NCBI GenBank assembly: GCA_016932505.1
Contig: JAFGCT010000007.1
Coordinates: 8,625 to 48,624, forward strand
Length of the DNA: 40,000 nucleotides
Direction of reading: 5' to 3'
Source: Candidatus Peregrinibacteria bacterium
GTDB lineage: Bacteria; Patescibacteriota; Gracilibacteria; UM-FILTER-43-11
This document shows, in pieces, positions 16,190 through 38,103 of the stretch. How positions within the stretch are numbered: the first letter of the stretch is position 1; each line of letters starts with the position of its first letter. The translations under genes were made by a program, and so were the position numbers. The notes below the pieces were generated by a model. It was given only the letters and a program-made list of their open reading frames with translations, ran no database searches and was not told the origin of the DNA.

Positions 16190-16328
16190 TAAATTTTTAT
16201 AATCTTATTATTATAGCATAAAATAAAGCAATAAGCAATGTAGCAATATAGAGTATCAATGAAATCCTTAATGTTTTTTGAAGTGTTTTGGTGTAAAATT
16301 GATTCAAGTAATTTAGAAATGAATTAAA

Positions 16329-17781: not shown

Positions 17782-17800
17782 CAATGTTAATAATTTACTT

Positions 17801-17810
17801 GTATATATAC
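17801..17810 (+). promoter_or_regulatory. Candidate C-box-like palindrome upstream of the controller gene
   Basis: gtatatatac is a perfect 10-bp palindrome 13 nt upstream of the ATG at 17823. It is AT-only, so it could arise by chance. Confidence 0.25.
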
Positions 17811-17822
17811 TTAAAATAGAAT

Positions 17823-18035
17823 ATGATAATTATAGATAAATACAAAGTTAAAGAAATAATGGCAAAAAGGAAAATAAACAATTATACTGAATTGGCTAAA
17901 ATGCTTGGCATTTCAAAAAATCAACTATCAAACATTTTATCAAATAGATTCAGACCGTTTAAAAGCAATGTTGAAGAAATCGCTGAATTTTTGAAAGTAA
18001 GCCCACTTGATATAATTAATGAAAAAAAGAAATAA
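17823..18035 (+). CDS. XRE-family helix-turn-helix protein, likely R-M controller (C) protein
   Basis: NNYTELAKMLGISKNQLSNILSN is an HTH motif. It is 70 aa and sits directly upstream of an endonuclease-methylase pair. Confidence 0.7.
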   Translation: MIIIDKYKVKEIMAKRKINNYTELAKMLGISKNQLSNILSNRFRPFKSNVEEIAEFLKVSPLDIINEKKK

Positions 18036-18038
18036 ATA

Positions 18039-19232
18039 ATGACCACACACGTATTTATAGTAGATTCAATAACATTTAAAATTCATTTGGAATACCTTTT
18101 TGCTGGTACTGGTGCTAAAAAAGGAAGCTCTCACAATAATGAAGGTTATTATGTAGATTTCAATAATAACCCAACAACAAATTATCATTATATAACTGAA
18201 AATATGTTATCAGGTATGATAGCGGATGGAAGCAGAATAAGATGTGGAGATAATATTTTATTTTATTTACAGCAAAATTACTCAAATAAAATTTTTGAAG
18301 GAAAATTTTATGGAATTTTTAAGGCTACACACGACTGGTCTTTTCTTGATAACTATGATAATAGTCAATTTCTTAATATTGAACTTGATAAATCATTAAC
18401 ATTTAGAACTCTTATTGAACCATACAGAGTTTATCCAGAAGGGGTAACAGAGTGGGAAGCTTTGGATGAAATTAGAAATATTCAATCTCCAAATCAAATG
18501 CTCTGGAGTTTGATTTATCGCAAACTCAAGGGGAATCGAGGTAATACAATGATTACTATGTATGAGTCAGAGAGATTATGCCAATTAATAAGGGATAAAA
18601 ACTTAAGACAAGAAATAAACACTAATAATCATAAGCTATCATTTGATCAAATTACGCAAAAAATCATAATTTTAAATGAAAATACCAATAATTATATTGG
18701 CAGAAAAGAGGAGATAAATTTACTTCCAAGATTAATCAGTAAATATAACGCAAATAAATCATTTGAGACGCATTTACAAGCATACATTGTCAAAAATATA
18801 GGTATAGGCATCAACCAAACTCTTGATAATTGCATTCTAATGGCTAATTCTGAAATTGAATGGCTCGGAAATGAGGTTTCCTGTGGTGTTGGTATGCAAA
18901 GAATCGACGTTATGCTTTCAGCCAATTTTAACGGACAGAGAACACTAATACCAATAGAATTAAAATCAGTTGAAGCTGATATAAACAATACAAAGCAAAT
19001 ACAAAGATATATCGATTGGATAGAACAGTACTATACTCCCAATAAGCAAAGCGATATTCAGCCCATCTTAATTTCTAAAAAGATTGATGATAAAAACACA
19101 GCAAAATATAAAAGCATTATATCTACTTTTAATGACTTTAATTTGCGTAATGCAACGAGATGTGAAAATCTTAAATATATTGAATACTATTTAGAAAATA
19201 ATAATTTAACCTTTAGTAAAATCACTTATTAA
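18039..19232 (+). CDS. Candidate type II restriction endonuclease of module 2
   Basis: Positioned between the C protein and a Dam-class methylase, with gaps of 3 and 2 nt. The C-terminal region contains a PD-(D/E)xK-like pattern (RIDVMLSA...IPIELKSVEA). The N-terminal domain of about 170 aa is unassigned. Confidence 0.55.
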   Translation: MTTHVFIVDSITFKIHLEYLFAGTGAKKGSSHNNEGYYVDFNNNPTTNYHYITENMLSGMIADGSRIRCGDNILFYLQQNYSNKIFEGKFYGIFKATHDWSFLDNYDNSQFLNIELDKSLTFRTLIEPYRVYPEGVTEWEALDEIRNIQSPNQMLWSLIYRKLKGNRGNTMITMYESERLCQLIRDKNLRQEINTNNHKLSFDQITQKIIILNENTNNYIGRKEEINLLPRLISKYNANKSFETHLQAYIVKNIGIGINQTLDNCILMANSEIEWLGNEVSCGVGMQRIDVMLSANFNGQRTLIPIELKSVEADINNTKQIQRYIDWIEQYYTPNKQSDIQPILISKKIDDKNTAKYKSIISTFNDFNLRNATRCENLKYIEYYLENNNLTFSKITY

Positions 19233-19234
19233 TT

Positions 19235-20302
19235 ATGAATTATATCGGTTCAAAGAAATCATTACTAAAATTTTTAGAAGAATCAATCTACAAAATTGTT
19301 GGAAAAAAAGATTTTGATTTTCTAGATTTATTTGCTGGTACAGGTATAGTTGGTCAACATTTTAAGGAGAGGGGGCATAAGATAATAGCAAATGACTTAC
19401 AATATTATAGCTATGTATTAAATAAAAATTATATAGAAAATCATAAAAGATTGGAATTCAAAGGGATAGAAAAGGAAATAAATAAAATTAAAAATATAAA
19501 TATTAATAATCGTGCAGAATTTGTGTGTGAATACCTAGATAACATTGATTATATTGAAGGTTTTATTTACAAAAATTACTGTCTAGGTGGCACTAAAAAT
19601 TCAAAATACGAAAGACAATATTTCTCCGATGATAATGGTAGAAAGACGGATGCGATTAGACAAAAAATTGAAGATTGGTACAAAAAAAATATTATTAATG
19701 ACAATGAATATTATTTTCTCCTAACAACACTTATTGAAAATATTGATAAAGTAGCAAACACTGCTTCAGTCTATGGTGCATTTTTAAAAAAATTAAAAAA
19801 ATCTGCCCACACAACATTTAATATGAAGCCAGCATATTTCCTACATAATGATAAAAAACATAACGTTTACAATGAAGATATTGAGGAACTAATTAATAAG
19901 GTCGAAGGGGATGTTTTATATTTAGATCCACCTTACAATCATCGCCAATATGCTCCAAATTATCATATATTGGAAACAATTGCCAAATATGACAACCCAA
20001 TAGTTAAGGGCAAAACTGGACTCAGAGATTACTCAAATCAGAAATCAAAATTCTCACAAAAAAAAGAGGTATTAAATTCATTTAATAATATAATCCAAAA
20101 CGCAAAAGTTAAATATATATTTCTTAGCTATAATAACGAGGGATTAATGACTGAGCAAGAAGTAAAAAATATTATGACGAAAAGAGGAGAATATGGAATT
20201 TTTAAAAAAGAATATAGTAGATTCAAAGCTGATTCTGATGACAACAGGGAGCATAAAGCAAATTCAGTAACTGAATATTTACACTATGTAATATGTAATT
20301 AG
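19235..20302 (+). CDS. D12-class (Dam-like) N6-adenine DNA methyltransferase of module 2
   Basis: MNYIGSKKSLL, DLFAGTG and LYLDPPYNHRQY motifs in the alpha-class order. Confidence 0.88.
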   Translation: MNYIGSKKSLLKFLEESIYKIVGKKDFDFLDLFAGTGIVGQHFKERGHKIIANDLQYYSYVLNKNYIENHKRLEFKGIEKEINKIKNININNRAEFVCEYLDNIDYIEGFIYKNYCLGGTKNSKYERQYFSDDNGRKTDAIRQKIEDWYKKNIINDNEYYFLLTTLIENIDKVANTASVYGAFLKKLKKSAHTTFNMKPAYFLHNDKKHNVYNEDIEELINKVEGDVLYLDPPYNHRQYAPNYHILETIAKYDNPIVKGKTGLRDYSNQKSKFSQKKEVLNSFNNIIQNAKVKYIFLSYNNEGLMTEQEVKNIMTKRGEYGIFKKEYSRFKADSDDNREHKANSVTEYLHYVICN

Positions 20303-20391
20303 AATAATGAAAATTGCATAAATACAACTATCACATTACTTCAAATTCTCGGCAACCAATTTCAAAACAAAGCAAAAATAATTAATAAATA

Positions 20392-21168
20392 GTGAATTAT
20401 ACCAAACAAATCATCGCCAAAAATGTTGCTAAGAGTATTGGAATCTTTTTAGTTTCAGGAATTATGTTTTATTTCGGAGTTAAGTATACTGCAAACGGCA
20501 TAAAAGCGGGAAAATGGACTAATGCATACATATTACAAATGATGTTAATGACTGCTGGGTTAATCTTAGGAATTTTATTAGTAAAAATGAATACTTGGTT
20601 TGAAAGATTTTCGGATAAAATTCTTGATTCAATAGAGTATGCGTTAATAGGGAATAGTGGAGAAAAACAAGTTAAAGCAGAGCTGGATAAATTTCTTGAT
20701 ATAAATGAATATAAAATTTATCGAAATATTGTATTACCAAAGAGGAAATTTGATATTGATATTATAGTACTGGGTCCAAAAGGATTAACGATATTTGAAG
20801 TAAAAAAATGGAAGGATAAAGTTATTTTTTATGAGAATGAAAAATACTTTGAGAAGATAAAACAAAAATCAGAATATAAAACAGAGATAACAAAGTGGTA
20901 TAAGAGAGATCCAAGAGAAAAGTTAGGTTGGTCATGCAATAATTTGAAGAAATATTTGGAGGAAATGGGTATTAATACAACAAATTTGCCAATTCACAAA
21001 AGCCTTGTATTCCCTAATGCCGTAGCTGAATGGAAAGGAAGCCCTGGTGTTTTTATTATTTCTGGACTAGAAGGACTAAAGAAATATTTTGTTGATGATA
21101 ATCGCAAAAAAATTTCAACTGATGATTATATAAAGTTAAAGGAGATATTTGATACATTAATAAAATAA
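20392..21168 (+). CDS. Membrane-anchored NERD (nuclease-related domain) protein
   Basis: Two N-terminal hydrophobic helices, then GNSGEKQVKAELDKFL...YKIYRNIVLP...DIDIIVLGPKGLTIFEVKKW, the NERD signature. GTG start as in the ORF track. Confidence 0.75.
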   Translation: MNYTKQIIAKNVAKSIGIFLVSGIMFYFGVKYTANGIKAGKWTNAYILQMMLMTAGLILGILLVKMNTWFERFSDKILDSIEYALIGNSGEKQVKAELDKFLDINEYKIYRNIVLPKRKFDIDIIVLGPKGLTIFEVKKWKDKVIFYENEKYFEKIKQKSEYKTEITKWYKRDPREKLGWSCNNLKKYLEEMGINTTNLPIHKSLVFPNAVAEWKGSPGVFIISGLEGLKKYFVDDNRKKISTDDYIKLKEIFDTLIK

Positions 21169-23560: not shown

Positions 23561-24847
23561 TCAGGCAGGAGTGGGAGCTTCTGGAGCAGGAGCTTCTGGG
23601 GCGGGAGGAGCTACCGCGTCGTCATTGTAAGGCTCTTCGGGCACGTCGCCCTCATCATCTTCAGCCTCTGTCTCTTCGTCCGGCTCGTCATCGGTTAGTT
23701 CAAATTTAGCGGTCTTTGACCTCCTTTCCAATGCTTTTTTTTGTTGTTTGAGCTCGTTTGTAAGCTGCTTATTTTCCTCAAGAGTGTCTTTAAAAGCCTT
23801 GATGAGTACGGGCAATCCTTCAACCATTATTTGATTCGGCTGATTGACTTCCCGAAGTTCATCGAGGAACTGCTCGTTGGTCTTCCGGGTTTTAAGCTCA
23901 TCTCTGAGCTTTTCAATCTCGGCGCCAGCCCTAGTAAGCGATTCCGTCAACTCGGCATTGTCGTTGATGAGATTAGTCTTCTCTTTGTTGAACCTCTGTT
24001 TTTCGATAAACGAAAGATAGAAAAGAACTCCGTAACAAATGACAAAAAGAGTGGCTATTGCAGCAAACAACGATCTTCTTTCGCGAAGCCGACTTTGTAA
24101 GGAAGCTGCCGCAATACACGGCCGACCAATATAATAACAATTGCCGTCATCATTCAAGGCATTACCAGACTCTGGAGGAGCTTTTTCCTCCACGTTTACT
24201 GAGGCGAACAAACCCTTATCAAGTGGTGGTTTATCATGTCCCATATCTTCAAAAGTACCACCAGTTCCAACGTGTCCATGCCTGTAATCAGTGGTTTCCC
24301 TTCCAGCATCGTCGTCGACATCTTCGTCGTCTGAGCTTTCGTTTTCCACATCCTCATCCACAGGCTCCAAGGTAATTCTTTGACCACCCGCCCCCTCTAC
24401 TGTATCGTCCTCAACATGGTCTAAAATATTTGGACCCTGCGCTCTCTCCTCAGCAAAAAAGTAGCGTTCATCATTTGACATCTGCCCGTCATCGTCGCAA
24501 CCAGGAAGTAGTTTTTCAAAATCAGGAAGAGCATGAGTATTAACAAACAATCCATCAAAATCAGGGGCACCAGCTCCTGCTCCTTCAGCAGCAGCTCTCT
24601 CCGCGGCAACATCCACCTTCGCAGTATCATCTTCTCTTTCATCTCCACCATCGGTTTTACCGTCAGGTTCAGCATCAGGCTCATCATCAGGTTCGCCATC
24701 GGTTTTACCGTCAGGTTCAGCATCAGGCTCATCATCACCTAAATCCAAATTCCAATTCTCAAACGTTGCTCCTATTCCTTCTTCTCCATTTCCTCCATCA
24801 GTTGTTACACCGCCTTGTCCTTTTTTTCCATCGTTTTGTTCTGACAT
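23561..24847 (-). CDS. GC-rich acidic low-complexity protein with one TM helix, a coiled-coil region and a Pro/Ala/Glu tail (428 aa)
   Basis: Repeats DAEPDGKTDGEPDDEPDAEPDGKTDG, TM segment LFAAIATLFVICYGVLFYLSFI, heptad-like region NLINDNAELTESLTRAGAEIEKLRDELK, and tail APPAPEAPAPEAPTPA. Confidence 0.8.
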   Translation of the reverse strand: MSEQNDGKKGQGGVTTDGGNGEEGIGATFENWNLDLGDDEPDAEPDGKTDGEPDDEPDAEPDGKTDGGDEREDDTAKVDVAAERAAAEGAGAGAPDFDGLFVNTHALPDFEKLLPGCDDDGQMSNDERYFFAEERAQGPNILDHVEDDTVEGAGGQRITLEPVDEDVENESSDDEDVDDDAGRETTDYRHGHVGTGGTFEDMGHDKPPLDKGLFASVNVEEKAPPESGNALNDDGNCYYIGRPCIAAASLQSRLRERRSLFAAIATLFVICYGVLFYLSFIEKQRFNKEKTNLINDNAELTESLTRAGAEIEKLRDELKTRKTNEQFLDELREVNQPNQIMVEGLPVLIKAFKDTLEENKQLTNELKQQKKALERRSKTAKFELTDDEPDEETEAEDDEGDVPEEPYNDDAVAPPAPEAPAPEAPTPA

Positions 24848-26853: not shown

Positions 26854-27765
26854 TTAGCCAAGCATTTTCCTTACTTTATACACAAAAAACCAAAAAGGAC
26901 GTAAGACCAACTCCTTTGCTTTTGGGTAATTTACCACTTCGCCACCGAATTTCTTTTTAAAACTTGTAACCCCAAGCCATGGATGACTTTTTGCTCCTTC
27001 GGGCGCAATCCCAAGGAAGTCATAGTATTTGCACCCTCTTTTTTTCGCTTCTTTCATAGCTGTCCACTGAACAAGATAAGAAGCCATTACATTTCGATAG
27101 TTATATTCGGAAGCACCATAGTAATAAATCCCCCACTCGTCTAAATATACAAAAATACCACCCGCTATAACTCTATCTTCATAGGTGGCGAGTAGTAATT
27201 GAGCATTTTCGCCCAATGTTTCCATCATTGTTTTATAATATGACTTTGGATGCACTCCGAATCCATCACGATTAGCAGTTTTTGCAAGAACTTCATAAAA
27301 AGCGTCTATATTGTCACTTGGCTCTACGCTGACATTATGACGCTCTGCGACCTTTATATTATACCGCCCCTTTTGTTTCATTGCTTCAAGAATAGCCTCC
27401 TCATCAAGGGTTAAATCCATTATGAGTGAAGTTTCAGGGTGATAATCAGATGAAGCATCCTTTAAACGAGCATCTTTTAAATTCATTTCATCATAAGGCG
27501 AAAAACGAACGAATACCGATTGCTCTTTTACCGCTAACTCTTCAATTTTCTTTACAATATCAGCAAAATTCTTCTGATCCTTACATAATGGCCCCCTTGG
27601 AACCTCAAGCCAGTTAAGTTTAAAAGGCATTTCATGTTTAACAACGAGCGCAGATGCAAAATCCGTTTCAATCATCCAGGTCTTACGACCATTTGCTTTT
27701 TGTAGCTTATCCCAAAGCGGATGTTGCCACAAACTTCTACGTTTAAAATTGTTCCAGTTATTCAT
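26854..27765 (-). CDS. FemAB-family peptidoglycan interpeptide-bridge aminoacyltransferase (FemX-like)
   Basis: WQHPLW...LEVPRGP...GGIFVYLDEWGIYYYGAS...YLVQWTAMKEAKKRGCKYYDFLGI is the typical FemAB pattern. The start is either the ATG at 27780 or, preferred here, the ATG at 27765. Confidence 0.85.
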   Translation of the reverse strand: MNNWNNFKRRSLWQHPLWDKLQKANGRKTWMIETDFASALVVKHEMPFKLNWLEVPRGPLCKDQKNFADIVKKIEELAVKEQSVFVRFSPYDEMNLKDARLKDASSDYHPETSLIMDLTLDEEAILEAMKQKGRYNIKVAERHNVSVEPSDNIDAFYEVLAKTANRDGFGVHPKSYYKTMMETLGENAQLLLATYEDRVIAGGIFVYLDEWGIYYYGASEYNYRNVMASYLVQWTAMKEAKKRGCKYYDFLGIAPEGAKSHPWLGVTSFKKKFGGEVVNYPKAKELVLRPFWFFVYKVRKMLG

Positions 27766-27872
27766 AACACAACATAGCATAATGCTATGAAAAATATTTT
27801 ACAACTTGTTTTTTACCAGACATCAAATACACCTATATTCAAGCGCTACAATCACAAATCAAAAAACACAAA

Positions 27873-28460
27873 TCACAATTTTACTTCCCCATCCGCAAAC
27901 ATCTGAATCACCTTCGGATACCACTCTTTTTCAAGCGTTTGGACTTTTGCTTTTAAGGTTTCTGGCGTATCTTCGGGGCTAACCTCAACTGATTTTTGGA
28001 CAACAATAGGACCGGCATCCAAATCATCCGTTACGATATGTATTGTCATTCCACTTTCCTTTTCACCGGCATCTATTACAGCCTTATGAACATCTAAATT
28101 CATACCCCCTGCATATTTTGGAAGTAAACTAGGATGAACATTAATTATTCGATTTTTAAATTCTTTTACTGTTTCTGAACCAATTATCTTCATATAACCG
28201 CCAAGAACGACCAAATCAACTTCAAAATACTTTAAAGTATCCAAAACGGACCGCTCATATGCCTCAGGAGTAAGTTCCTTTGCATTATAAAAATAAACTT
28301 TGATTCCATTATCTCTGGCTTTCTGCGCCGCTCCGCAATCGGCTTTATTCGTTATAAGGCAGGTGATTTCAACATTAGAAAGTTCTCCTCGTGCCTTAGC
28401 ATCGAGTATTGATTGAAAATTTGTCCCATTTGTAGATGAAAGGACTGCAATTTTAAACAT
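27873..28460 (-). CDS. purN: Phosphoribosylglycinamide formyltransferase
   Basis: IAVLSSTNGTNFQSI...INVHPSLLPKYAGG...GMTIHIVTDDLDAGPI. Confidence 0.93.
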   Translation of the reverse strand: MFKIAVLSSTNGTNFQSILDAKARGELSNVEITCLITNKADCGAAQKARDNGIKVYFYNAKELTPEAYERSVLDTLKYFEVDLVVLGGYMKIIGSETVKEFKNRIINVHPSLLPKYAGGMNLDVHKAVIDAGEKESGMTIHIVTDDLDAGPIVVQKSVEVSPEDTPETLKAKVQTLEKEWYPKVIQMFADGEVKL

Positions 28461-28555
28461 AATAACTAAATTAAATTACATATTCATTCTAAATCACAAT
28501 TCAAAAATCACAAATCACAAATTCAAAGTTTTTTCGCTTTTTGTAATGGTATATT

Positions 28556-31500
28556 TTAAGCTACCTGATTTAATGGGAATAAAATGCCTGCTATTTCCAA
28601 CATGGTATCAGGGCCATGTCTATTTTCTCCTGTTGATCTTCGACCAACTACCCTGCTTATAAATCCAATTCCGCCTCCATACATTCCAAAATTCATTGCC
28701 TGAAATTCCTTAAAGGTCATACTTAATAAATCCTCTCTAGTGTAAATACCATTTTCATTCATATACATAACATATTTTTGTTTTTGCTCCTCAGGCGATA
28801 AAATTTTAATTCCGCACTTTTTAATAAAATCTTCAAGCACTATATGATTAAGCTTTTCCTTAACTTTTTCACCTGTTACATATTTAACAAAATCCCTTCC
28901 TTTTCCAATATTATCAAAAGTGGTATTTTTAAACCACTCTGTGCCAAAAGTTCTTAAATCATCATCATCATTTACTCCAACTTTGGACAATGCCTTTTGA
29001 ACAAAGTTATAAGAAAGCTCTTGCATACTTAATTCCTCAGCAACCTTTTCTAGATCAGACACAAGCATAGTGGCATGTATTGGAAAACCAAGCGCCTTTG
29101 AAACATCACGTCCCGTACCAAAGGGTTCAAATGTAGCACCAGCAAACCAGTTTACACCTTTATGCATAAGCATCTTTTTATCGTAAACACTGCAAATTCT
29201 AAGTCCTGCTCTCATTCTAATCTTTACTTCACGCATTGTAATCTCAGGAAAATCCAATTGATTTCCAATAAGAGTAAGTACGCCTTTCGTTGAACTATGA
29301 GCCACCCCTGTCACCGCCTTAGCAAATCTCTTCCATGTTTTATACTTACCAAAGTTCTGTTCTTTAAAATATCCAACCCCTCTATAAATCAAATCAATTC
29401 TGTCATTGATATTAATACTCTTAAGAATATCCTTAAACTCTAATTTTTGATCCTGAGTTAATTCTATAAGGCTAAATCTACTTTCACCATCATCTAATTT
29501 TTCCATAAATTTTACCGATTCATCATCCTCAGAAAAACCAAGCTGATCAGCAATTAAAATAAGAGTACTTCTTGCAACACGTTTAAAAGAAATACCTGTA
29601 ACCGCTTTAGCAAATGCAGTAGATTTTCCATATTTACCAAAATTCTGTCTTTTAAAATACATAACCTCCTTATTAAGAAAATCAGACCTGCGATTAAAAC
29701 CAATAGCACTAAGAATTCCTCTAAATTCCTCAATTTGTTCAGGGGTTAATTCAATTCTCTTATTAGGCTCTTCAATTTTTCTTCTAACCGCCTCCCACTT
29801 TTCACCGTCAGAAGAAAAATTCAACTGATCAGCAACCAGAAAAAGAGCTTTTCTACTAACATCCCTAAAGCTAACACCTGTAACAGCCTTGATAAACGCC
29901 CTTGCCTTACCATATTTACCAAAATCCTGTTCCTCAAAATATTCGATACCTTTGCCGATAAGATCAGCTCTATCTTCAATACCTACATTTATAAGGATTC
30001 CTCTAAATTCCTCAATTTGTTCAGGAGTTAATTCAATTATTTGATTACGCTCATCTATCGTTCTTCTATATTTTTTCTGTTGCATTGCCATTGATATATC
30101 CGCTAAATGCAAATCTAAGATTTCAAATAATTCATACAAGTTCACTAGATTAACAACACCCTCAATATTTCTGTTTAAAACAAAACTTGCGAATTGAGTC
30201 GGATTTTCAAAAGGAGGAAAATCACTATGAAGAAATTCATTATAAGATTCCATTGGGGTCATCTCTTTGCTAACTTTCATATTATTCAACAAAATTCTCC
30301 TACAAATTTCATTTTGTTTTTCTGAATCATTCAATTCAATTTCATCTTCAATTAATTTTGAATGCTCTTCCAAAAAAGCAGATCTGAAATCTAAGCTACA
30401 TTCATTTTCTTCTTCAGAGTTTTGAGTTCTTTTAAGATTACTTAAAATCTCTTCTACTTCATTATATAAATCCTCATGAAGTTCAACCTCCAATACTCTT
30501 AATATCTCTGCAAGCTCAGACTTTTTAACTGTATTATAGATAGTCCTTCCTAATACAAAACTAGCAAAGGTAATAGGGTCTCCATATGGATCAAAATTAC
30601 TATTCAGAAACAAACTTCTTATATCGGTCAGCCTCTTGCATTCTTGTAACTCCATATTGCTAAGCAAAACATCTCTATAAAAAATTGTTTGTCTTTTCGG
30701 ATTCTCATCCAAACCAATTTCATCACTAATAATTTCCATATCATCTTCACCCAATTTTGTATCAAAACCAAATATTGATTCTCCAAAATCTTTAAAACTA
30801 GCATTTAAAGGCAAATTAGCTTCTTCTTTTCTATGAATCCAAAAATATCTTCTAAGAGCTTTCCAGTGATACACCCCTCTCTCATTAAACCATGATTTAT
30901 AAATATCCATTTCTAAATCAATTGTAAGAGGGTCCATACCAACATATTCAGCAATTTTATTTAAAGAACCTTTAAAATTTATTGGGTTTAAATTAGGAAT
31001 AACCTCCTGAAAAAAAGTTGTTTCCTGAAGCATTTTAGTTCCTTTTGTATACAATGAATTTGTATCAAATATTCCATAAGACTCTAATACCTCCAAACAC
31101 CTAACGCGCTTTTCATGAGATTGATCAGGAATGGGCAAAAGATCTACGACATCCTGAAATTTAGAATCAGAAATTTTCTTAACTTCCTTTCCTAATACAG
31201 CTGTAGCCAAGTGATGTGGTGATTCAAAAGGAGAATAATCACCTTCTAAAAAACCCTCCACACCACCGTTAAGCACATCAATCTTATTCGCATTAGGATA
31301 ATTAACATGCATTATATCAATCAAAAGTTGTCTTATATTGAATACCTCATCTGCAAATTGACCTACAAGCTTTTCCATCTCCTCAACAACCTCTGGATAA
31401 ACATCAATTAAGTGGGAATCCCCCAAGGTAATATTAATAGCACTTCTAAAATCCTCACTAACAATTTCCATACCATTTACCTTATAATAATGCTCAACAA

Positions 31501-31633
31501 CGGTAGAAAGTCTCTTTCTAAACTTATCCACAAAGAAATTTACCCCTTTCGGATTAACCTCTGAGGCAACGTATTGTTCAAAATCAGAGAGATAGCTATC
31601 TTGTATCGATTTTATGGAAAAAGGGATAGACAA
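28556..31633 (-). CDS. Large cytoplasmic repeat protein (1025 aa) with at least 9 copies of an unassigned F-x-P-[YF]-G-x-G...[LT]-G module
   Basis: Module cores are FDPYGDPITFASFVLG, FPPFENPTQFASFVLN, FGKYGKARAFIKAVTG, FGKYGKSTAFAKAVTG, FEPFGTGRDVSKALG, FDNIGKGRDFVKYVTG and FGMYGGGIGFISRVVG. No signal peptide or TM helix. Confidence 0.85.
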   Translation of the reverse strand: MSIPFSIKSIQDSYLSDFEQYVASEVNPKGVNFFVDKFRKRLSTVVEHYYKVNGMEIVSEDFRSAINITLGDSHLIDVYPEVVEEMEKLVGQFADEVFNIRQLLIDIMHVNYPNANKIDVLNGGVEGFLEGDYSPFESPHHLATAVLGKEVKKISDSKFQDVVDLLPIPDQSHEKRVRCLEVLESYGIFDTNSLYTKGTKMLQETTFFQEVIPNLNPINFKGSLNKIAEYVGMDPLTIDLEMDIYKSWFNERGVYHWKALRRYFWIHRKEEANLPLNASFKDFGESIFGFDTKLGEDDMEIISDEIGLDENPKRQTIFYRDVLLSNMELQECKRLTDIRSLFLNSNFDPYGDPITFASFVLGRTIYNTVKKSELAEILRVLEVELHEDLYNEVEEILSNLKRTQNSEEENECSLDFRSAFLEEHSKLIEDEIELNDSEKQNEICRRILLNNMKVSKEMTPMESYNEFLHSDFPPFENPTQFASFVLNRNIEGVVNLVNLYELFEILDLHLADISMAMQQKKYRRTIDERNQIIELTPEQIEEFRGILINVGIEDRADLIGKGIEYFEEQDFGKYGKARAFIKAVTGVSFRDVSRKALFLVADQLNFSSDGEKWEAVRRKIEEPNKRIELTPEQIEEFRGILSAIGFNRRSDFLNKEVMYFKRQNFGKYGKSTAFAKAVTGISFKRVARSTLILIADQLGFSEDDESVKFMEKLDDGESRFSLIELTQDQKLEFKDILKSININDRIDLIYRGVGYFKEQNFGKYKTWKRFAKAVTGVAHSSTKGVLTLIGNQLDFPEITMREVKIRMRAGLRICSVYDKKMLMHKGVNWFAGATFEPFGTGRDVSKALGFPIHATMLVSDLEKVAEELSMQELSYNFVQKALSKVGVNDDDDLRTFGTEWFKNTTFDNIGKGRDFVKYVTGEKVKEKLNHIVLEDFIKKCGIKILSPEEQKQKYVMYMNENGIYTREDLLSMTFKEFQAMNFGMYGGGIGFISRVVGRRSTGENRHGPDTMLEIAGILFPLNQVA
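29182..30037 (-). repeat. Three tandem intragenic repeats of 282-288 bp (94-96 aa)
   Basis: The modules begin IELTPEQIEEFRGIL (30037), IELTPEQIEEFRGIL (29755) and IELTQDQKLEFKDIL (29467). DNA-level identity is visible, for example ttcctctaaattcctcaatttgttcagg. Confidence 0.9.
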
Positions 31634-31751
31634 TAGAAAAACAGATAAAAATTAGGGTATATAATATACTAATTATAAAATTATGCAAGAATAATTTGAC
31701 ATAATAAGAAAATAGATATAAAATAACCCCCTAATTTTTAATAATAAAGTT

Positions 31752-32045
31752 ATGCCCGAAAATTTTGATACAAATGGTGTGGTCTCATTATTGGATCAGA
31801 ACGATACCATATATGTTCAATTTCCAAAAAGATTAGTTGAAGGACTTAATCCAGAAACATTTGTTAATTTAAGGAAATCATTAGCCAAAGCTCTTGATAA
31901 TCGCACAATACCGCATTTAGATGCTGACTTGATTACTTTAGAAGAAGGCATTTCTGTTAATCGGAGTTTAACAAAATTCGCGCCTGCAATTATCGCATTA
32001 CTAAAAGGTGAAATTTCCAGTATTGACGAATACAGACAAAATTAA
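31752..32045 (+). CDS. Hypothetical protein (97 aa) on the opposite strand, between the two repeat-protein genes
   Basis: ORF only. It exactly fills the gap between the paralogs. Confidence 0.5.
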   Translation: MPENFDTNGVVSLLDQNDTIYVQFPKRLVEGLNPETFVNLRKSLAKALDNRTIPHLDADLITLEEGISVNRSLTKFAPAIIALLKGEISSIDEYRQN

Positions 32046-32055
32046 TCATCATCTC

Positions 32056-33555
32056 CTAAACAAACAAATACTCAGATATCTCGCTTAAAACAGCAAGGTT
32101 TACTGTTGGAAATTTTTTTCCTAATATTTCGCGGGCAAATCGGATTCCCTTTCCATATGGAGGGAATCCAGTACGTCTAAACCATCTGGTTCCTTTTTTA
32201 AACAATTCTTCAGAGCTAAAAACTCCTGCATTAGCTAGCACTTCTAAATAAGAAGTCTTTCTATCAGGATACTCCAGCTTATCGGCTACCTCGTGAAGAA
32301 GTGAATATGTTATATCCCCACAGGCTTGTCCCAGAATAAGTGCAAACAATGCCCTGCCTTTTCCATATGGCGGAAAGTCAGTATCTGTATACCAAGTTGT
32401 TGTTTTAGACATAAGGGTATTTCTATCCACAATGCCAAATGAGCTCAAAATATTTCTGTACTTTTGAAAAATTTCTTGTTTGTCCGGTTTTTTAAAACCC
32501 ATTTTAACCGCGACTTTTTCCAAAGTCGGGATTAATATAGAACCACATGGTTCACCTAATATAACCGCAAAAAACATACCTGCTTTTCCGATAGGGCTGA
32601 AATCCGCATCTGAACTCCTGTACCAATTAACAGGTTTTGCCATAAGGGTTTCATAGTTAAAAATACCGTGTCTGGCAAAAAGCAATTCATAATATTCCAA
32701 AGAATTTGCTGTTTCATTTATATCATCTTTATTATAAACATCAGGCAGATCCAATTCATCAGCTATTATATTAAGATCATACACATCCAGCCCATTCACA
32801 CCACCGGCAGGTCGCTCGCCAAGTGCCACCGATGCAATACTAAGTCCGCTTCCAAAAGGTGGAAATTGCATTTCGGCAAATCCTTTTATTGTTAACTGCT
32901 TTAAAGTTTTTTTATCGACTATACCTTTTTGCATTAAAGCTAAACGTAATCTTCTTTTTGTCTCTTCCGAAAAATCAGGAAATTGCAAAACCTTCATCAT
33001 CTCATCTATATGGAGTAAAGAAAGTTTTTTTATTCTACATCCCAAAACTTTTGAAACAAATTCTGTACCATTTTCATAAGGAGGAATCGGCTCATTCCTA
33101 AATTGGCCTAAGAATTTTTTTGGATCCCTCATTAACAGCAATGTCCTTTTATCAAAAATGAAATATTTATCAGCTAATAATTTCCTATATCCAGCTAGAA
33201 CTTCATTCTTTAAAAGTACTTCAGTTTGCCTGTTTTTATGCAACCCAAAAAACTCTCTTTGAAATTGTTCACGAATAATATCAATTACAACAAAGGCGTC
33301 TTCGTATATTTCACGAAAAGGAGAAACAGGTAAAGAAGACTCCAAGCCAACACTAAAAGAATCATAATCAACAGAATTCCCATTTATCTTATTCACCTCA
33401 CTCGTTACTTTTTGAACAATATTGCGAAAATGCGGTATAAGTATATTGGATACACGACTGTGATCAGTTTCATCAGGATAAACTTCAGAAAGACCACTTA
33501 GAAGGGCCTCTTCATATTTTTTTAAGATAACCGAATAAGAAGTAGAGGGTTGCAT
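32056..33555 (-). CDS. Shorter paralog of the repeat protein (499 aa, 5 modules)
   Basis: Module cores are IPPYENGTEFVSKVLG, FPPFGSGLSIASVALG, FSPIGKAGMFFAVILG, FPPYGKGRALFALILG and FPPYGKGIRFAREILG. The N-terminal region of about 110 aa has the same layout as in the 1025-aa protein. Confidence 0.85.
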   Translation of the reverse strand: MQPSTSYSVILKKYEEALLSGLSEVYPDETDHSRVSNILIPHFRNIVQKVTSEVNKINGNSVDYDSFSVGLESSLPVSPFREIYEDAFVVIDIIREQFQREFFGLHKNRQTEVLLKNEVLAGYRKLLADKYFIFDKRTLLLMRDPKKFLGQFRNEPIPPYENGTEFVSKVLGCRIKKLSLLHIDEMMKVLQFPDFSEETKRRLRLALMQKGIVDKKTLKQLTIKGFAEMQFPPFGSGLSIASVALGERPAGGVNGLDVYDLNIIADELDLPDVYNKDDINETANSLEYYELLFARHGIFNYETLMAKPVNWYRSSDADFSPIGKAGMFFAVILGEPCGSILIPTLEKVAVKMGFKKPDKQEIFQKYRNILSSFGIVDRNTLMSKTTTWYTDTDFPPYGKGRALFALILGQACGDITYSLLHEVADKLEYPDRKTSYLEVLANAGVFSSEELFKKGTRWFRRTGFPPYGKGIRFAREILGKKFPTVNLAVLSEISEYLFV

Positions 33556-33613: not shown

Positions 33614-34339
33614 CTACAACCCCTTTAAACGATCATTGTAAAAATTTCTATATATACACTCTTTTGGGCTGATGAAATAATCATCTTCTGTAAATTCCTC
33701 ATCGGTAAACTTTGCTTTAAAATCACGAACAATAACAAATGGAACAGAAGCATTAGTTTCACCCATTTCAAGATTAGCTGCGCTGGACAGATTATCCGCA
33801 ACAGCTATTTTAGTATATTTCATCGGTCGGCGAAAAAGGTCTTTTGAGCCCACTTCATCCTGAACACCATAAAAACCAGCCCAGCCAATTGCAATACCAG
33901 AAGTACCCATACGAAGAGGCTGACAATGTGAATCACTAATTACAATTCCAAGTTTTTTAAGTTTAAACTTTTTCATCAACGTATCCCTAATCTGATCTGC
34001 AAAAACAAAAGGTTTCTCCGGCCATAATATTGCTTTGCCTTTCGGAACATTGGAGTTATCGATACCTGCATTAGGAATAAGTATTTTGTTTTTCAAAGTA
34101 ATGACCATTTCACCTTCATCCAAAACAGAATCTGCTTCCTTTTTTATAAGTGCAACAAACTCTTCTCTATTTGCTGAATCAACAAGTCTCCCCTGACTAT
34201 AAGCAAGAACCTTTGAGGCTATTACCAAAATATCCTTATTTTTAATCTCTTCTTTTTTAGAGCTCAGGGCGTCTAACAACTTTTGGATTAAGTCGTTTTC
34301 GAATTGGACCCGTTCGCTTTTTAGGGGTATCAGTTCCAT
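33614..34339 (-). CDS. CofE-like protein (F420-0:gamma-glutamyl ligase family)
   Basis: ILVIASKVLAYSQGR...IPNAGIDNSN...GIVISDSHCQPLRMGTSGIAIGWAG...NLSSAANLEMGETNASVPFVIVR. Confidence 0.8.
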   Translation of the reverse strand: MELIPLKSERVQFENDLIQKLLDALSSKKEEIKNKDILVIASKVLAYSQGRLVDSANREEFVALIKKEADSVLDEGEMVITLKNKILIPNAGIDNSNVPKGKAILWPEKPFVFADQIRDTLMKKFKLKKLGIVISDSHCQPLRMGTSGIAIGWAGFYGVQDEVGSKDLFRRPMKYTKIAVADNLSSAANLEMGETNASVPFVIVRDFKAKFTDEEFTEDDYFISPKECIYRNFYNDRLKGL

Positions 34340-35570
34340 ATGTTTGTAAAATTACAATGCTTCCAAGAATTAACCAAAATATCATAGAGAGATCATTCTT
34401 CCAAAAAGGTGTATCAAAAATTCCATGAATAATTATTCCCCAAAATGCTATTAAAGGATAAGTAAATTTTCGGTGAACTAAAATCAAAAATAAAATCAGT
34501 ACAGAAAGACCAAGTAAACCGGCATTAAGCCAGAACGCGAAAAATATATTATGGGGATGAGGAATATTCCATTCCATTGGAACATGTCCAAGATTCTCAC
34601 GACCACGGGTTTGGTATTCAGCCTGAAATAATCCAGGACCAATTCCTGTTAATGGTTCTTCATTAATAAGACCCCAGGCAATTTCATATACTTCTAATCG
34701 CACTGAAGTACTGGATCTATTTTCCCAATCTAAAAATTGTTTGAATTTTGGTGTATTAATTTGTGTTAAAAGAACGATTGAAAAAGTTAGCACCAATAGT
34801 CCAAAAGCAATTAAAGCTGCTTTCTTTTTCTTTGTTTTCCAAATTATCAAATACAAAACATAAAGACCAATTGAACCAAATACACCGATAATTGCCGCAT
34901 AGGATTGTGTAAAAAACAATGCATGTGCCATTATTGCCAAAGAAGAGACGTCCAAATAATCTGCAATTTCCGGCTTGCCCCTTCTTTGAAATAAAAAATA
35001 AACACTAATAAGTAATGGTGGAACTAAAAACAAAGAAAGATAATTTGCTGATTCATAGAAACCACTCAAACGAAAATCATAAGTTATTCCGCTATCTAAT
35101 ATCGCATATCCATATGAAATCAATGCCACTAATGCACCTGCATATACAAAAGAACGTAGAAGTTTTTTTAAATCTACAGAAGAAGTAATGGACTGCGTAA
35201 GTACAACAAAATAAAGAATCGGAGCAATAATCCACCCCTTCCAAACACCTAATGCAGTACGCTGAGCATCAAGCACTTCCCCGCTTGGTAGATTTATATA
35301 ATGAGGAGCTGTAAGTACACCAATTGTCGCACCTATTATCAAAACAAATGCCAATATCCAATAGTATCTAAGCGGTTTTTGCCAATTTACAGGTATATGT
35401 CTTAAGATTATCGCAAGTAACCAAAGTGAAAAAATCAAATAACAAAAAACCTCAAGAACTGTCATTGGAATTCCGAATAACTGAAAATGCAAAAGATACA
35501 AAGGAAAAACAAAAGGAGAAATCAAAAGAAGTTTTTGTACTATCCCCTGTAATAAATTATTTTTTTTCAT
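34257..35570 (-). CDS. O-antigen ligase/polymerase-family (Wzy_C) polytopic membrane protein
   Basis: At least 10 hydrophobic helices, a periplasmic-loop region with NIPHPHNIFFAFWLNAGLLG, and a basic tail that overlaps the next gene by 83 nt. Confidence 0.8.
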   Translation of the reverse strand: MKKNNLLQGIVQKLLLISPFVFPLYLLHFQLFGIPMTVLEVFCYLIFSLWLLAIILRHIPVNWQKPLRYYWILAFVLIIGATIGVLTAPHYINLPSGEVLDAQRTALGVWKGWIIAPILYFVVLTQSITSSVDLKKLLRSFVYAGALVALISYGYAILDSGITYDFRLSGFYESANYLSLFLVPPLLISVYFLFQRRGKPEIADYLDVSSLAIMAHALFFTQSYAAIIGVFGSIGLYVLYLIIWKTKKKKAALIAFGLLVLTFSIVLLTQINTPKFKQFLDWENRSSTSVRLEVYEIAWGLINEEPLTGIGPGLFQAEYQTRGRENLGHVPMEWNIPHPHNIFFAFWLNAGLLGLSVLILFLILVHRKFTYPLIAFWGIIIHGIFDTPFWKNDLSMIFWLILGSIVILQTYGTDTPKKRTGPIRKRLNPKVVRRPEL

Positions 35571-36237: not shown

Positions 36238-38103
36238 ATGTCATTTAAATATCTAGCTGATACATTTTCAGTAGCTCGTGACTCAGATCACTTTATTCAA
36301 TTAAAGTCGCTTAAAAAGCCAAGAATTGATGATCAAGTCTGGATTGCTTTTGAAATTGTCGGTGATTCAAAATTCGCACGTTCAACTGTTCAAAGTATAA
36401 TCGATACTATTGAGGAGGTTTATTTTGAGAATCTTGAACTCGACGCATATGAAAGATTTGAACAAACTTTGAAGGAAATAAATATCATCTACAAAAACAT
36501 CAAAGAAAAAAGAGGTGTTAAATCCCTTGGCACTATTAGTGCCATAATTGCTGTTTTTGCAGGTAGTGAACTATTTCTTACACAATCAAAAAACGCTGAG
36601 GCTTATCTTATAAGAAAAGGAAAGCTCTCACTTGTTAGCGAAGGATTATCTGCAAGGTCAGAAGATTTATTTGTAAATATTGCCGCAGGTGAACTTCTTC
36701 CTGAAGACAAAGTTCTATTCAGTACATCAAGACTTCTTCGCTTAGCAACTCATTCCCAAATAGCACAATTATGCGAAGATGGCATAACTGAAGCATTGGA
36801 TTCAATACGTGAATTAGTACTTTCCGATAACGATTTAAGTATTGGAGTAACCTGTGTTCATGCAAAATTACCTCAACGTGGTGGCGCAAGAACATCATCG
36901 GAAGGAAATAAATATTTAGCAAAAATAAAAGATAAAATATTTTCAGTTTTTAAATCATTAAGTGAAAAATTCGGAGGAAAAATCAATAAAAAAATGGGGC
37001 TGAAAACAGATATGAATAAGAATACAATTTTAGCAATCATACTTTTCATTATTCTTATACTTATTATAAGTGTTTCTTTATTGATAGATGGTCGCAGAGA
37101 CAGCGCCCTAAGAGAAGAATACAGATTACGAATTGAGGCAATGAATCAGGATTTAAATACGGCGAATACTAAAGGTTATGCAAACGATAAAGAAACAGCA
37201 AATGCGATTCTTACAAAAGTTGAAGGTGAAGCCAGAGAAATACTTGAAACAAACTTTTTCCGCGCTGAAACGCTTGCCTTAATTGATAAAATTCAGGAAT
37301 CACGAGACAGTATTAATAATACTGTACGACTTTCCAACGTTACTCCTTACGTAGATCTTAGTACTAAAAACGAAAATATTAAAGCACTTGGACTGCTTAA
37401 TCTGGATGATAATTTCTTCGCATATGAATATAACAACCTATATGAAGTAATTCTGGATCAAGTACTGGACCCAAAAACAATAGACAATACAGAAGTTGTA
37501 ACAACAGGTTCAGCAATGGAAGACATGGGTCTGCTCGTATTCCTTACTCAATCGGGTAGAATTATTGAATATGATGAGGGGCAATTCAGATTTGCCAGTA
37601 CAGAAGATGAAAGCTGGAAACCGGGCAATGCTGTAGCTGCTTATGGTAAATACATCTATATGTTAAGCCCTACTACTAATCAGATTTATAAATACTCAAG
37701 ACTTCGCTCAGATTATTCAAGTGCAACAGAATATAATTCTGATGCTGAATTACAAGATGCTATTTCACTTGCGATTGACGGTAATATATATGTTCTAAAA
37801 AAAGGCGGAGAAATTATTCAACTATTCAAAGGCAAAAAACAACCATTTGAGATTGAAGATCTTGCAACAGACATCACCGAAGCAACTAAAATCTTCACTT
37901 CACCTGATTTGGATGGTCTTTATATTCTTGACCCTGTTAATAAGCGTGTAATTATTATACAAAAGGATTCAGGACCAGGAGGAAGATACCAAGGACAGGT
38001 TTACTTTGAAGATCTTGATAATGTTCAGGATATATATGTTGAAAAAGGTGAAAACAAGCTCTATTTACTGACACAAACAGGAATATTTGCTGTAGATATT
38101 TAA
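36238..38103 (+). CDS. Hypothetical bitopic membrane protein (621 aa)
   Basis: The cytoplasmic N-terminal domain of about 250 aa has a pattern faintly like a degenerate PP2C/SpoIIE fold (ELFLTQSKNAEAYLIRKGKL). TM segment ILAIILFIILILIISVSLLI. The C-terminal half is beta-rich. Confidence 0.75.
   Translation: MSFKYLADTFSVARDSDHFIQLKSLKKPRIDDQVWIAFEIVGDSKFARSTVQSIIDTIEEVYFENLELDAYERFEQTLKEINIIYKNIKEKRGVKSLGTISAIIAVFAGSELFLTQSKNAEAYLIRKGKLSLVSEGLSARSEDLFVNIAAGELLPEDKVLFSTSRLLRLATHSQIAQLCEDGITEALDSIRELVLSDNDLSIGVTCVHAKLPQRGGARTSSEGNKYLAKIKDKIFSVFKSLSEKFGGKINKKMGLKTDMNKNTILAIILFIILILIISVSLLIDGRRDSALREEYRLRIEAMNQDLNTANTKGYANDKETANAILTKVEGEAREILETNFFRAETLALIDKIQESRDSINNTVRLSNVTPYVDLSTKNENIKALGLLNLDDNFFAYEYNNLYEVILDQVLDPKTIDNTEVVTTGSAMEDMGLLVFLTQSGRIIEYDEGQFRFASTEDESWKPGNAVAAYGKYIYMLSPTTNQIYKYSRLRSDYSSATEYNSDAELQDAISLAIDGNIYVLKKGGEIIQLFKGKKQPFEIEDLATDITEATKIFTSPDLDGLYILDPVNKRVIIIQKDSGPGGRYQGQVYFEDLDNVQDIYVEKGENKLYLLTQTGIFAVDI

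Follow-up and report, generated by a model that had tools for sequence, protein, structure and literature searches.

A lineage-restricted repeat module in two paralogous proteins of Candidatus Peregrinibacteria, possibly a tandem DNA tether

Introduction

Two neighbouring genes of a Candidatus Peregrinibacteria bacterium, here called A and B, code for proteins built from many copies of a module of about 72 residues, and the question they raise is what kind of domain this is and what it could do when used in series. They lie in a window of 40,000 nucleotides (the whole stretch of DNA that was analysed). Many proteins of CPR bacteria are lineage-specific and have no known role; among them the family of A and B is unusually tractable, since its repeat unit is sharply delimited and its fold, though unmatched, is predicted with confidence.

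The two genes and their surroundings

Gene A (28556..31633) and gene B (32056..33555) are both on the minus strand, and the coordinates, strand and lengths given for them in the initial annotation were correct. The product of A (1025 aa, TTG start) consists of a diverged N-terminal helical domain, ten module copies detected by HMM and degenerate spacers, and that of B (499 aa, pI 7.6) of the canonical N-terminal domain of the family and five modules. The TTG start is backed by an independent assembly in which A is also called as a 1025-aa gene, and the N-termini of two relatives (P0126 and P0070) are collinear with that of A; an alternative gene call begins at a GTG at codon 35 (P0006, 991 aa). 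The pair is flanked by purN (Formyl_trans_N, E 1.9e-53) and, on the other side, by a CofE-like gene (F420_ligase, E 1.1e-46), and a 97-aa ORF on the opposite strand (31752..32045, plus) separates A from B, all of them neighbours that had been reported before. This ORF has no family match and is missing from the syntenic slot in relatives, for which reason it is probably outside the A/B system. A promoter-like site of near-consensus sigma-70 type (TTGACA-17-TAAAAT; 31696..31724, plus strand), recognised by its consensus match alone, is found 5' of the ORF, inside the divergent intergenic region that it shares with A. Both A and B are long, intact ORFs in a genome of 33% GC. Hydropathy gave no signal-peptide- or TM-like segment in either, in agreement with the earlier reading, and they are soluble cytoplasmic chains, A acidic (pI 5.2, net charge -34) and B near neutral.

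A and B are paralogues that have diverged from each other and belong to a small family restricted to Peregrinibacteria/CPR bacteria. Their proposed paralogy was borne out by the N-terminal domains (A, aa 1-98, 31340..31633; B, aa 1-115, 33211..33555; both on the minus strand): the alignment of residues 6-98 of A with 10-103 of B had a Smith-Waterman score of 70, against 28.9 +/- 5.4 for shuffled sequences, and 0 of 2000 shuffles reached that value. The shared domain is real, but its two copies are less similar than had been claimed, the one in A being very diverged. An N-domain HMM built from the family without A or B matched B at E 2e-12 and A at E 1.2 only. The domain of B is of the family type (..YExxLLxxLxEVYPDExDxxxVxxILIPHFR..), while that of A, though related, is far from the family consensus. 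In B it is predicted to form three to four long helices with a disordered loop at residues 59-83 (AF2 pLDDT about 50-77), and no PDB sequence matched it below E 0.013.

The module and its copies

The family consensus of the module is ..YRxALAxHGIxDRxSLLxKGxxWFxxTDFPPYGKGxAFAxxILGxxxxxVSLxxLExIADxLGLP, with which the flanking motifs described at first (GIxDRxxL, WF and LxxIADxL) are consistent. The length of 70-95 aa proposed for the unit holds for the core, of about 72 aa, but the wider spacings within A are linkers or degenerate copies. Similarly, the core motif as literally written matches only two copies, although a relaxed version matches nine. The two sequences quoted as examples were found at residue 394 of B (FPPYGKGRALFALILG) and 571 of A (FGKYGKARAFIKAVTG). 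The number of copies detected by HMM, five in B and ten in A (nine full-length and one N-terminal half, residues 172-209), agrees with the claimed five and at least nine.

All the copies are on the minus strand. Those of B are modules 1 (aa 116-193, 32977..33210), 2 (aa 196-271, 32743..32970), 3 (aa 282-355, 32491..32712), 4 (aa 359-430, 32266..32481), the closest to the family consensus, and 5 (aa 429-498, 32062..32271). Module 1 of A (aa 95-169, 31127..31351) is degenerate, with E-S-P in place of the G-K-G turn and a net charge of -6. It is followed by a partial or interrupted module (aa 172-245, 30899..31120), of which the first half alone was detected and which probably runs on, with an insertion, to about residue 245; residues 245-305 may be one further degenerate copy. 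Then come the HMM-detected modules at aa 312-383 (30485..30700) and 437-509 (30107..30325), one of the FGKYGKARAF type at 536-607 (29813..30028), two basic ones at 630-701 (29531..29746; +6) and 726-796 (29246..29458; +5), and three more at 800-871 (29021..29236), 871-943 (28805..29023; HMM-detected) and 947-1018 (28580..28795). The copies at 800-871 and 947-1018 were outside the seed alignment and were found independently, with first-pass E-values of 1.6e-9 and 5.2e-9, respectively.

Across the family the mean net charge per module is +2.1, with conserved basic positions at 8, 19, 40 and 51 (R/K8, R19, K40, R/K51), and it is alike in helicase-fused (+2.6) and stand-alone (+2.25) arrays. The scored modules of A have a mean charge of +0.25, and three of eight keep the lysine of the G-K-G turn. 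Protein A, whose N-terminal modules are acidic and have lost this turn, has probably degenerated in part or shifted in function. No tandem repeats were found at the DNA level at A/B, an indication that the module copies are old and maintained.

Predicted fold

The structure prediction that the initial annotation had suggested gave a confident model. For two consecutive modules, each folded into five helices, AlphaFold reached a pLDDT of 95.7. In the models a first helix-turn/hairpin-helix element is made of helix 1, the G-I-x-D-R turn (a six-residue G-I-x-D loop) and helix 2, and a second one of helix 3, the F-P-P-Y-G-K-G turn and helix 4; the fifth helix (L-x-x-I-A-D-x-L) is joined to the next module by a G-L-P-x-L-S linker. 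In the full-length model of B the modules have a pLDDT of about 85-97 and the pTM is 0.49, a combination of high local and low global scores that, as far as models go, indicates separate beads on a string and no rigid solenoid.

Foldseek searches of the PDB with the two-module and full-length B models retrieved no alpha-CTD, (HhH)2 or other neighbour (best E 2.3 and 0.6, TM-scores <=0.24), and a search of BFVD with the confident models was also empty, TM-scores being <=0.27 over all Foldseek searches. We also considered the known alpha-solenoid repeats (TPR, HEAT/ARM, PUF, ankyrin, pentapeptide and others, with units of 20-50 aa), and they were discarded on the period of about 72 aa, the five helices and the lack of any Pfam repeat match. 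A solenoid fold for B was rejected as well, given the pTM of the model and solenoid matches with TM-scores <=0.13 in Foldseek.

Distribution, genomic slot and fusions

No model of Pfam, NCBIfam, PHROG or PADLOC and no PDB sequence matched A or B, so that the module is indeed unassigned, as had been stated; the module profile had no PDB match at E <= 10. When 1.84 billion representatives were searched exhaustively by profile, only 145 proteins were found, with 504 modules and pI values from 4.6 to 10.5. The named genomes that carry them are all Ca. Peregrinibacteria/Patescibacteria MAGs, and the expected restriction to CPR bacteria holds as far as these go. There was no sign of a phage link (best PHROG E-value 0.0099, with no passing stretch) or of a viral origin, no relative being found in IMG/VR and no fold in BFVD. 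In PADLOC-DB the helicase-fused relatives were matched at generic SF2 cores only.

The genomic slot has a conserved order: Wzy_C, CofE, one to five module genes, purN and FemAB. There is one module gene in four loci (L004, L007, L020 and L021), two in the window and five in L001, with 3 to 29 modules in total, and some paralogues are chimeric, with a second N-domain at the C-terminus. Between genomes the module genes are <=35% identical (35% for A and a collinear orthologue) and the flanking genes 47-72%; judged from these identities, the module genes diverge faster than their neighbours. The genes of the slot (Wzy_C, CofE, purN, FemAB) show no functional link to DNA transactions.

In several relatives the modules are fused to recognisable domains. 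ResIII and Helicase_C are N-terminal to the modules in seven proteins (P0015, P0037, P0049, P0053, P0086, P0101 and P0118), Sigma70_r2/r4 occur together with modules in P0131, P0112 and P0146 and Sigma70_r3 in P0133, and other arrays are joined to HTH-like units. These domain arrangements suggest that the module tethers proteins to DNA. The helicase and sigma fusions fit a protein-protein docking module equally well.

Similarity to helix-hairpin-helix and helix-turn-helix domains

The initial annotation had pointed to helix-hairpin-helix (HhH) motifs and nucleic-acid binding, and here the results are divided. In favour, besides the fusions, the whole-library search matched the family profile to P0139, a protein with eight RNA_pol_A_CTD domains, at E 3e-5; this was the sole recognisable foreign family in the exhaustive search. 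By hhalign the profile of 504 modules scored 19.8 against alpha-CTDs (P 2e-4; 0 of 300 column shuffles reached it) and 15.5, in the same register, against only three independent canonical alpha-CTDs (P 0.003; 0 of 200 shuffles), and another run against an HhH domain gave P 0.004, every one of these scores lying above all the shuffled controls. However, the hhalign probability was only 9-46% and just module positions 9-34 were aligned, i.e., about 25 residues of the first hairpin. Thus the significant similarity sits in the GIxDRxxL hairpin and not in the F-x-P-Y-G-K-G core, where the likeness had been placed. Weak Pfam matches among 78 members were to HTH_26 (19 members), PsbU (12) and, in a few, Sigma70_r4, Rho_N and HTH_8, all of them small helical nucleic-acid-binding domains.

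Against this, neither A nor B nor any module taken singly reached the threshold of an HhH or HTH model of Pfam, and no HhH family appeared in A and B at E <= 1. Among the 78 members, matches to HhH models were limited to sub-threshold PsbU matches summed over repeats (12 members) and to P0129 (POLH-Rev1_HhH/IMS_HHH_1, with no passing stretch). The helix 2-turn-helix 3 core of HTH_26/HTH_3 was unmatched at threshold; the weak matches of the 19 members cover profile positions 31-53 (module 49-70), and A and B have none. The empty Foldseek searches and the net charge of A also count against the idea.

Possible functions

The reading that we prefer, though we put it slightly short of an even chance, is that of a new lineage-restricted HhH-like domain whose tandem copies together form a multivalent tether to DNA; the caution is due to the acidity of protein A and the absence of a structural match. 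As a novel HhH-like domain contacting nucleic acid, each copy would make a weak and largely sequence-independent contact with the backbone through its glycine-rich turns and R/K8, R19, K40 and R/K51, and 4-13 copies in series would provide attachment of high avidity. The arrays on SF2 helicases, sigma-70 factors and HTH-like units would be the tethers of these proteins. In stand-alone proteins such as A and B the N-terminal helical domain would allow the chain to self-associate or to bind a partner, and the proteins would serve as scaffolds that bridge or coat DNA in the manner of nucleoid-associated proteins, with only the central modules of A (aa 630-870) still competent.

The same architecture could serve protein-protein interaction, like SAM-like domains or the activator surface of the alpha-CTD, with arrays acting as scaffolds or adaptors to which a common partner is recruited, and helicases, sigma factors and HTH proteins docking on it or on each other rather than on DNA. 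We consider this unlikely but worth keeping in mind. The charges of A and B and the wide pI range of the family fit it, as do the many conserved module positions that are hydrophobic or acidic (D18, D34, E63, D66), a helical domain at the N-terminus that is typical of oligomerisation modules, the independence of the modules as beads and the fact that HhH family membership could not be demonstrated. However, the fusion partners that can be recognised are all either enzymes acting on nucleic acids or factors that bind DNA, the weak similarities all point toward DNA-binding helical motifs, the mean module charge is positive with conserved basic positions, and no conserved candidate partner gene accompanies the family. 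The variation of the slot (1, 2 or 5 genes), the divergence of its genes relative to their flanks, the chimeric paralogues and the extremely narrow distribution would also be expected of a fast-evolving locus of conflict or host interaction, whose paralogues were decoys, effectors or parts of defence or anti-defence systems with copy and repeat number under diversifying selection, the biochemistry of the module being secondary. Some fused helicases do resemble the helicase cores of restriction or defence proteins. We find this improbable: A and B have no PADLOC match and the helicases match as generic SF2 cores, no relative was found on viral contigs, the stand-alone proteins have no nuclease, toxin or other effector domain and A/B no signal peptide for export, the flanks are housekeeping genes and not island-like, and repeat proteins in general also evolve rapidly. 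That A and B are decaying or non-functional products of repeat expansion, with no selected function, is very hard to believe; the degenerate modules and long spacers of A and its drifted N-terminal domain are set against intact reading frames, a collinear orthologue of A elsewhere, module cores that are conserved over about 500 copies in 145 proteins and whose fold is predicted with confidence, and copies that are old and maintained.

A wider form of the DNA-tether reading would see the 72-residue module, a new domain for which no structural neighbour is detectable, as a modular DNA anchor of Peregrinibacteria common to scaffolds, SF2 helicases and sigma factors, which would give the organisation of the nucleoid or the targeting of transcription a CPR-specific layer, tuned by the variable paralogues between Wzy_C/CofE and purN; this we regard as a rather doubtful extension. 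Should the module prove to be a DNA tether, it would offer a new element from which avidity for DNA can be built, and a first handle on how bacteria with reduced genomes arrange or direct the machinery of their DNA transactions. Should it serve protein docking, an unknown hub that links sigma factors and helicases would be implied. Under either reading, a family of such narrow phyletic range (145 clusters in the searched set) that is tied by fusions to helicases and sigma factors merits a Pfam entry and a structure.

Comparison with known systems

A close parallel at the level of sequence is the C-terminal domain of the RNA polymerase alpha subunit (RNA_pol_A_CTD, PF03118), a double HhH domain that is, like the module, small, all-helical and of similar size. 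Their elements follow one another in the same order, i.e., helix, G-I-x-[DT] hairpin and helix, and then helix, G-K/R-containing turn and helix, and the L-x-x-x-G-I-x-D-x-x-x-L of the module aligns on L-K-R-A-G-I-N-T-V-Q-E-L of the alpha-CTD in one register with or without the P0139 repeats. However, the alignment is limited to about 25 residues and PF03118 matches no module; the second turn of the module (F-P-P-Y-G-K-G) is longer and contains a small beta bridge, and there is a fifth helix. Many alpha-CTD structures are in the PDB and Foldseek retrieves none of them from the module models, and the alpha-CTD is found once per chain, the module 4-13 times. With the PsbU/ComEA-type (HhH)2 (PF06514) the best E-value was 5e-7, summed over repeats, for a segment of helix, L-P-x-L-S turn and helix, but the match straddles the junction of two modules and covers no module, no single stretch passes and A and B are unmatched. 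The lambda-repressor-like HTH of Cro/C1 type (HTH_26, PF13443) also has five helices in about 65-70 aa, and the tail of the module (L-G-x-x-x-x-x-V-x-x-x-x-L-x-x-I-A-D-x-L-G) resembles its recognition-helix end, loop and helix 4; here about 22 residues match, without a structural match.

For the architecture as a whole there is an analogue in topoisomerase V of Methanopyrus kandleri, in which 12 (HhH)2 domains form a DNA-binding tail that gives processivity and salt tolerance and has been used to engineer processive polymerases. No likeness in sequence was detected, topoisomerase V structures being among the PDB entries that the module profile did not match. Its repeat is of about 50 aa, against about 72 aa and five helices in the module, and A and B, unlike topoisomerase V, have no catalytic domain. 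Under the DNA-tether reading the concept is the same: small, hairpin-containing helical domains placed in series on a DNA enzyme, in the relatives of A and B an SF2 helicase, as a non-specific multivalent tether.

Two paralogous genes built from one repeated module

Gene A (28556-31633, minus strand, 1025 aa, with a TTG start) and its paralogue B (32056-33555, minus strand, 499 aa) flank a 97-aa ORF of the opposite strand (31752-32045, plus). The ORF listing and Pfam agree with the initial annotation in placing the pair between purN (Formyl_trans_N, 27873-28460, E 1.9e-53) and a gene coding for a CofE-like F420-0:gamma-glutamyl ligase (33614-34339, E 1.1e-46). Further out, Pfam identified FemAB (26854-27780) and Wzy_C, an O-antigen-ligase-type membrane protein (34257-35570). 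No usable match to Pfam, NCBIfam or PHROGs was obtained for A, B or the 97-aa ORF. The hydropathy scan detected neither an N-terminal hydrophobic segment nor a convincing transmembrane (TM) helix in A or B, bearing out the earlier statement that both lack a signal peptide and TM helices. For this reason a link to the envelope-related neighbors (Wzy_C, FemAB) was dropped, and these are regarded as merely conserved flanks. The TTG start of A is backed by the A-like N-termini present in P0070 and P0126, two other module proteins, and by an independent assembly in which the gene is likewise called at 1025 aa. The A-orf97-B arrangement, with the 97-aa ORF called as a gene, recurs in the independent assembly SRR13394437, and a near-consensus promoter-like site (TTGACA-17-TAAAAT, by consensus match) is located upstream of this ORF; it has no counterpart at any syntenic locus examined and is therefore not regarded as part of the system.

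The alignment of A against B by BLASTP gave eight mutually offset matches (E 3e-18 to 4e-6), a pattern typical of proteins that have internal repeats in common. An HMM seeded with ten hand-anchored copies retrieved at the first pass 15 copies in A and B, four of them outside the seed (E 2e-7 to 5e-9), indicating that the repeat proposed in the initial annotation is real. The example sequences and flanking motifs given there were correct, and only the literal core pattern was too strict, matching just two copies. Once homologues were added, the unit settled at ca. 72 residues (EEQKEKYRDALASHGIVDRESLLKKGVKKFKETDFPPYGKGRAFASAVLGETVKNVSLSDLEEIADKLGL(P)). B has five copies. A has nine complete ones and half of a tenth (aa 172-209), which probably runs on across an insertion, and a further copy, degenerate in sequence, may lie at A 245-305. 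TRF found no DNA-level tandem repeats in either gene, so the copies are old and a recent duplication is ruled out as their origin.

Structure prediction gave a confident helical model of the module. The di-module model (B 359-498, MSA of 24 adjacent module pairs) had a pLDDT of 95.7 and a pTM of 0.66, with predicted helices at about positions 2-13, 20-25, 28-33, 42-50 and 59-68 of each module and a two-residue bridge flanking P-P-Y on either side. In the full-length model of B the modules had a pLDDT of about 85-97 at a pTM of 0.49, i.e., the domains are well defined and their mutual arrangement is not. Foldseek searches of the PDB (di-module and full-length B) and of BFVD (di-module) gave nothing better than E 0.6 or TM 0.27, with no credible match, and the module profile had no match among PDB sequences at E <= 10.

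The N-termini of A and B are also homologous, since residues 6-98 of A and 10-103 of B are collinear with a Smith-Waterman score of 70, far above that of shuffled sequences (28.9 +/- 5.4, with none of 2000 reaching 70). A family HMM of this N-domain, built with A and B left out, recovered B at E 2e-12 and A only at E 1.2; the copy in A has drifted. The AF2 model of B has three or four long helices in this domain and disorder in the loop at 59-83, at only moderate pLDDT (about 50-77). The N-domain profile had no significant match among PDB sequences; the best one, a Pumilio protein (E 0.013), was judged to be due to chance.

Size, distribution and domain fusions of the family

The word-indexed homologue search was nearly blind to the module family: it returned four relatives of B and nothing for either A or the N-domain profile, so that an exhaustive HMM search was needed. 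Over 1.84 billion cluster representatives it yielded 145 proteins at E <= 1e-3 (123 of them at E <= 1e-10), with 1-13 modules per protein and 504 scorable modules in all. No member carried a meaningful name at its source, a single "protoheme ferro-lyase" label being evidently wrong, and we found no prior description of the family in the literature. A scan confined to the exact pattern DFPP[FY]GKG, whose counts are thus a lower bound, detected at least four loci among 185,579 species-representative genomes and at least ten further metagenomic loci. Within that scan the restriction to CPR raised in the initial annotation holds, all four named genomes being MAGs whose labels read Candidatus Peregrinibacteria or Patescibacteria group.

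In many relatives Pfam places ResIII and Helicase_C N-terminal to the module array, while Sigma70_r2/r4 precede or follow the modules in P0131, P0112 and P0146, and Sigma70_r3 accompanies them in P0133. About 16 relatives begin with a short unit (W-A-E-Y..T-I-R-x-R-L) that had only sub-threshold HTH matches and is not counted as an established DNA-binding partner. As separate observations, the helicase core of P0053 is separated from its modules by a match to the "integrase repeat unit" INT_rpt (PF14882, aa 652-688, E 1.2e-8), and linkers judged by eye to resemble it are found in the helicase fusions P0047, P0055, P0082 and P0092. P0109 and P0121 combine the family N-domain and one module with several copies of a different repeat of ca. 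90 aa (...MDxxYF..V..DL..YA...G..V.G.TYL.RA..ALG...), which has no Pfam match.

Conservation and variation at the locus

The order orf621, orf190, Wzy_C, CofE, module gene(s), purN, FemAB is kept in loci L004, L007, L020 and L021 from other genomes and metagenomes, and more loosely in L001. The slot itself is occupied by one gene of 310 aa with three modules in L021, one of 476 aa with five modules in L007 and L020, one A-like gene of 619 aa in L004, the two genes A and B in the window, and five co-oriented, overlapping paralogues (595, 838, 502, 491 and 412 aa, together holding 29 modules) in L001, from the Peregrinibacteria MAG GCA_003154375.1. Adjacent pairs of module genes were also found in L008, L013/14, L017 and L018. 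Two proteins, the 838-aa paralogue (L001 4508-7024) and P0008, carry a second N-domain at the C-terminal end, an arrangement that points to fusion of neighboring tandem paralogues or to unequal recombination between them. As for the flanks, orf621 (36238-38103, plus strand) has no informative Pfam assignment and, being 65-68% identical in L007 and L021, is a conserved, uncharacterised CPR protein.

Other features of the window

A 684-aa protein (2040-4094, plus strand) is a chaperone-translocon fusion, in which a PPIC-type rotamase (PPIase) domain at aa 256-366 is joined to the SecD/SecF P1-head and C-terminal membrane domains. The stretch at ca. 16000-21000 has a low GC content (26-29%, vs. 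about 34% elsewhere in the window), includes a D12-class N6-adenine DNA methyltransferase (19235-20302) and also holds Pfam-less ORFs at 15167-16189 (minus) and 18039-19232 (plus); possibly it represents a mobile or restriction-modification island. Besides orf621, large ORFs are located at 23561-24847 (minus) and 8450-10126 (plus); two of the three have no Pfam match and one matches DUF3352. A 7-bp tandem repeat (AAATCAC x 4.6, 28491-28522) lies in the short intergenic gap between the stop of A and the start of purN. Rfam had no match over the whole window.

Interpretation and similarity to known systems

Our preferred reading, as the best supported, takes the module to be a small, helix-hairpin-helix (HhH)-like helical domain with no earlier description, strung together in several copies to tether nucleic acids multivalently and without regard to sequence. 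The arrays would bind DNA by avidity and act as scaffolds. Some Peregrinibacteria proteins would carry them attached to helicases and sigma factors; A and B have the array by itself, preceded by a helical N-terminal domain that may oligomerise. The main rival is that the module serves for protein docking. Modules carry a net charge of +2.1 on average, the basic residues at positions 8, 19, 40 and 51 being conserved, and the values are similar in all architectures; A is the exception, with a net charge of -34 overall and N-terminal modules devoid of the G-K-G turn. The second rival is a fast-evolving conflict locus. Identity to the window is 47-72% for the flanking proteins and at most 35% for the module proteins; A and B had no match in PADLOC, and the viral-contig scan found no relatives on viral contigs. 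There is also a real, if minor, chance that we are dealing with a new domain that marks out a system specific to CPR.

As to the nucleic-acid tether, the only foreign family drawn in by the module profile in the exhaustive search was P0139 (E 3e-5), a 528-aa protein of eight tandem RNA_pol_A_CTD domains (Pfam E 3.6e-62, 8 stretches), an architecture unusual in its own right. In hhalign comparisons with an alpha-CTD alignment, the module stretch L-x-x-x-G-I-x-D-R-x-x-L... falls on the first alpha-CTD hairpin, with P 0.004 for 37 modules and P 2e-4 for 504 (none of 300 column shuffles reaching the score). Because this leaned partly on the P0139 repeats, picked by the module profile itself, the comparison was repeated with three canonical alpha-CTDs, none profile-selected, giving P 0.003 in the same register (0 of 200 shuffles). 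The resemblance in sequence is reproducible but weak and short, about 25 residues. Among 78 members scanned, the commonest Pfam families at E <= 0.1 were HTH_26 (in 19), falling on the module tail, and PsbU (in 12), on the inter-module junction.

No assignment of the module to an HhH or HTH family could be established: it stayed below the family-model thresholds and structural similarity was not found. For this reason we place the arrays of A and B with tandem small helical domains of nucleic-acid-binding type. At the level of the motif the closest likeness is the alpha-CTD. Functionally, the module arrays would most closely resemble, by analogy, tails made of (HhH)2 domains in tandem, as in topoisomerase V.
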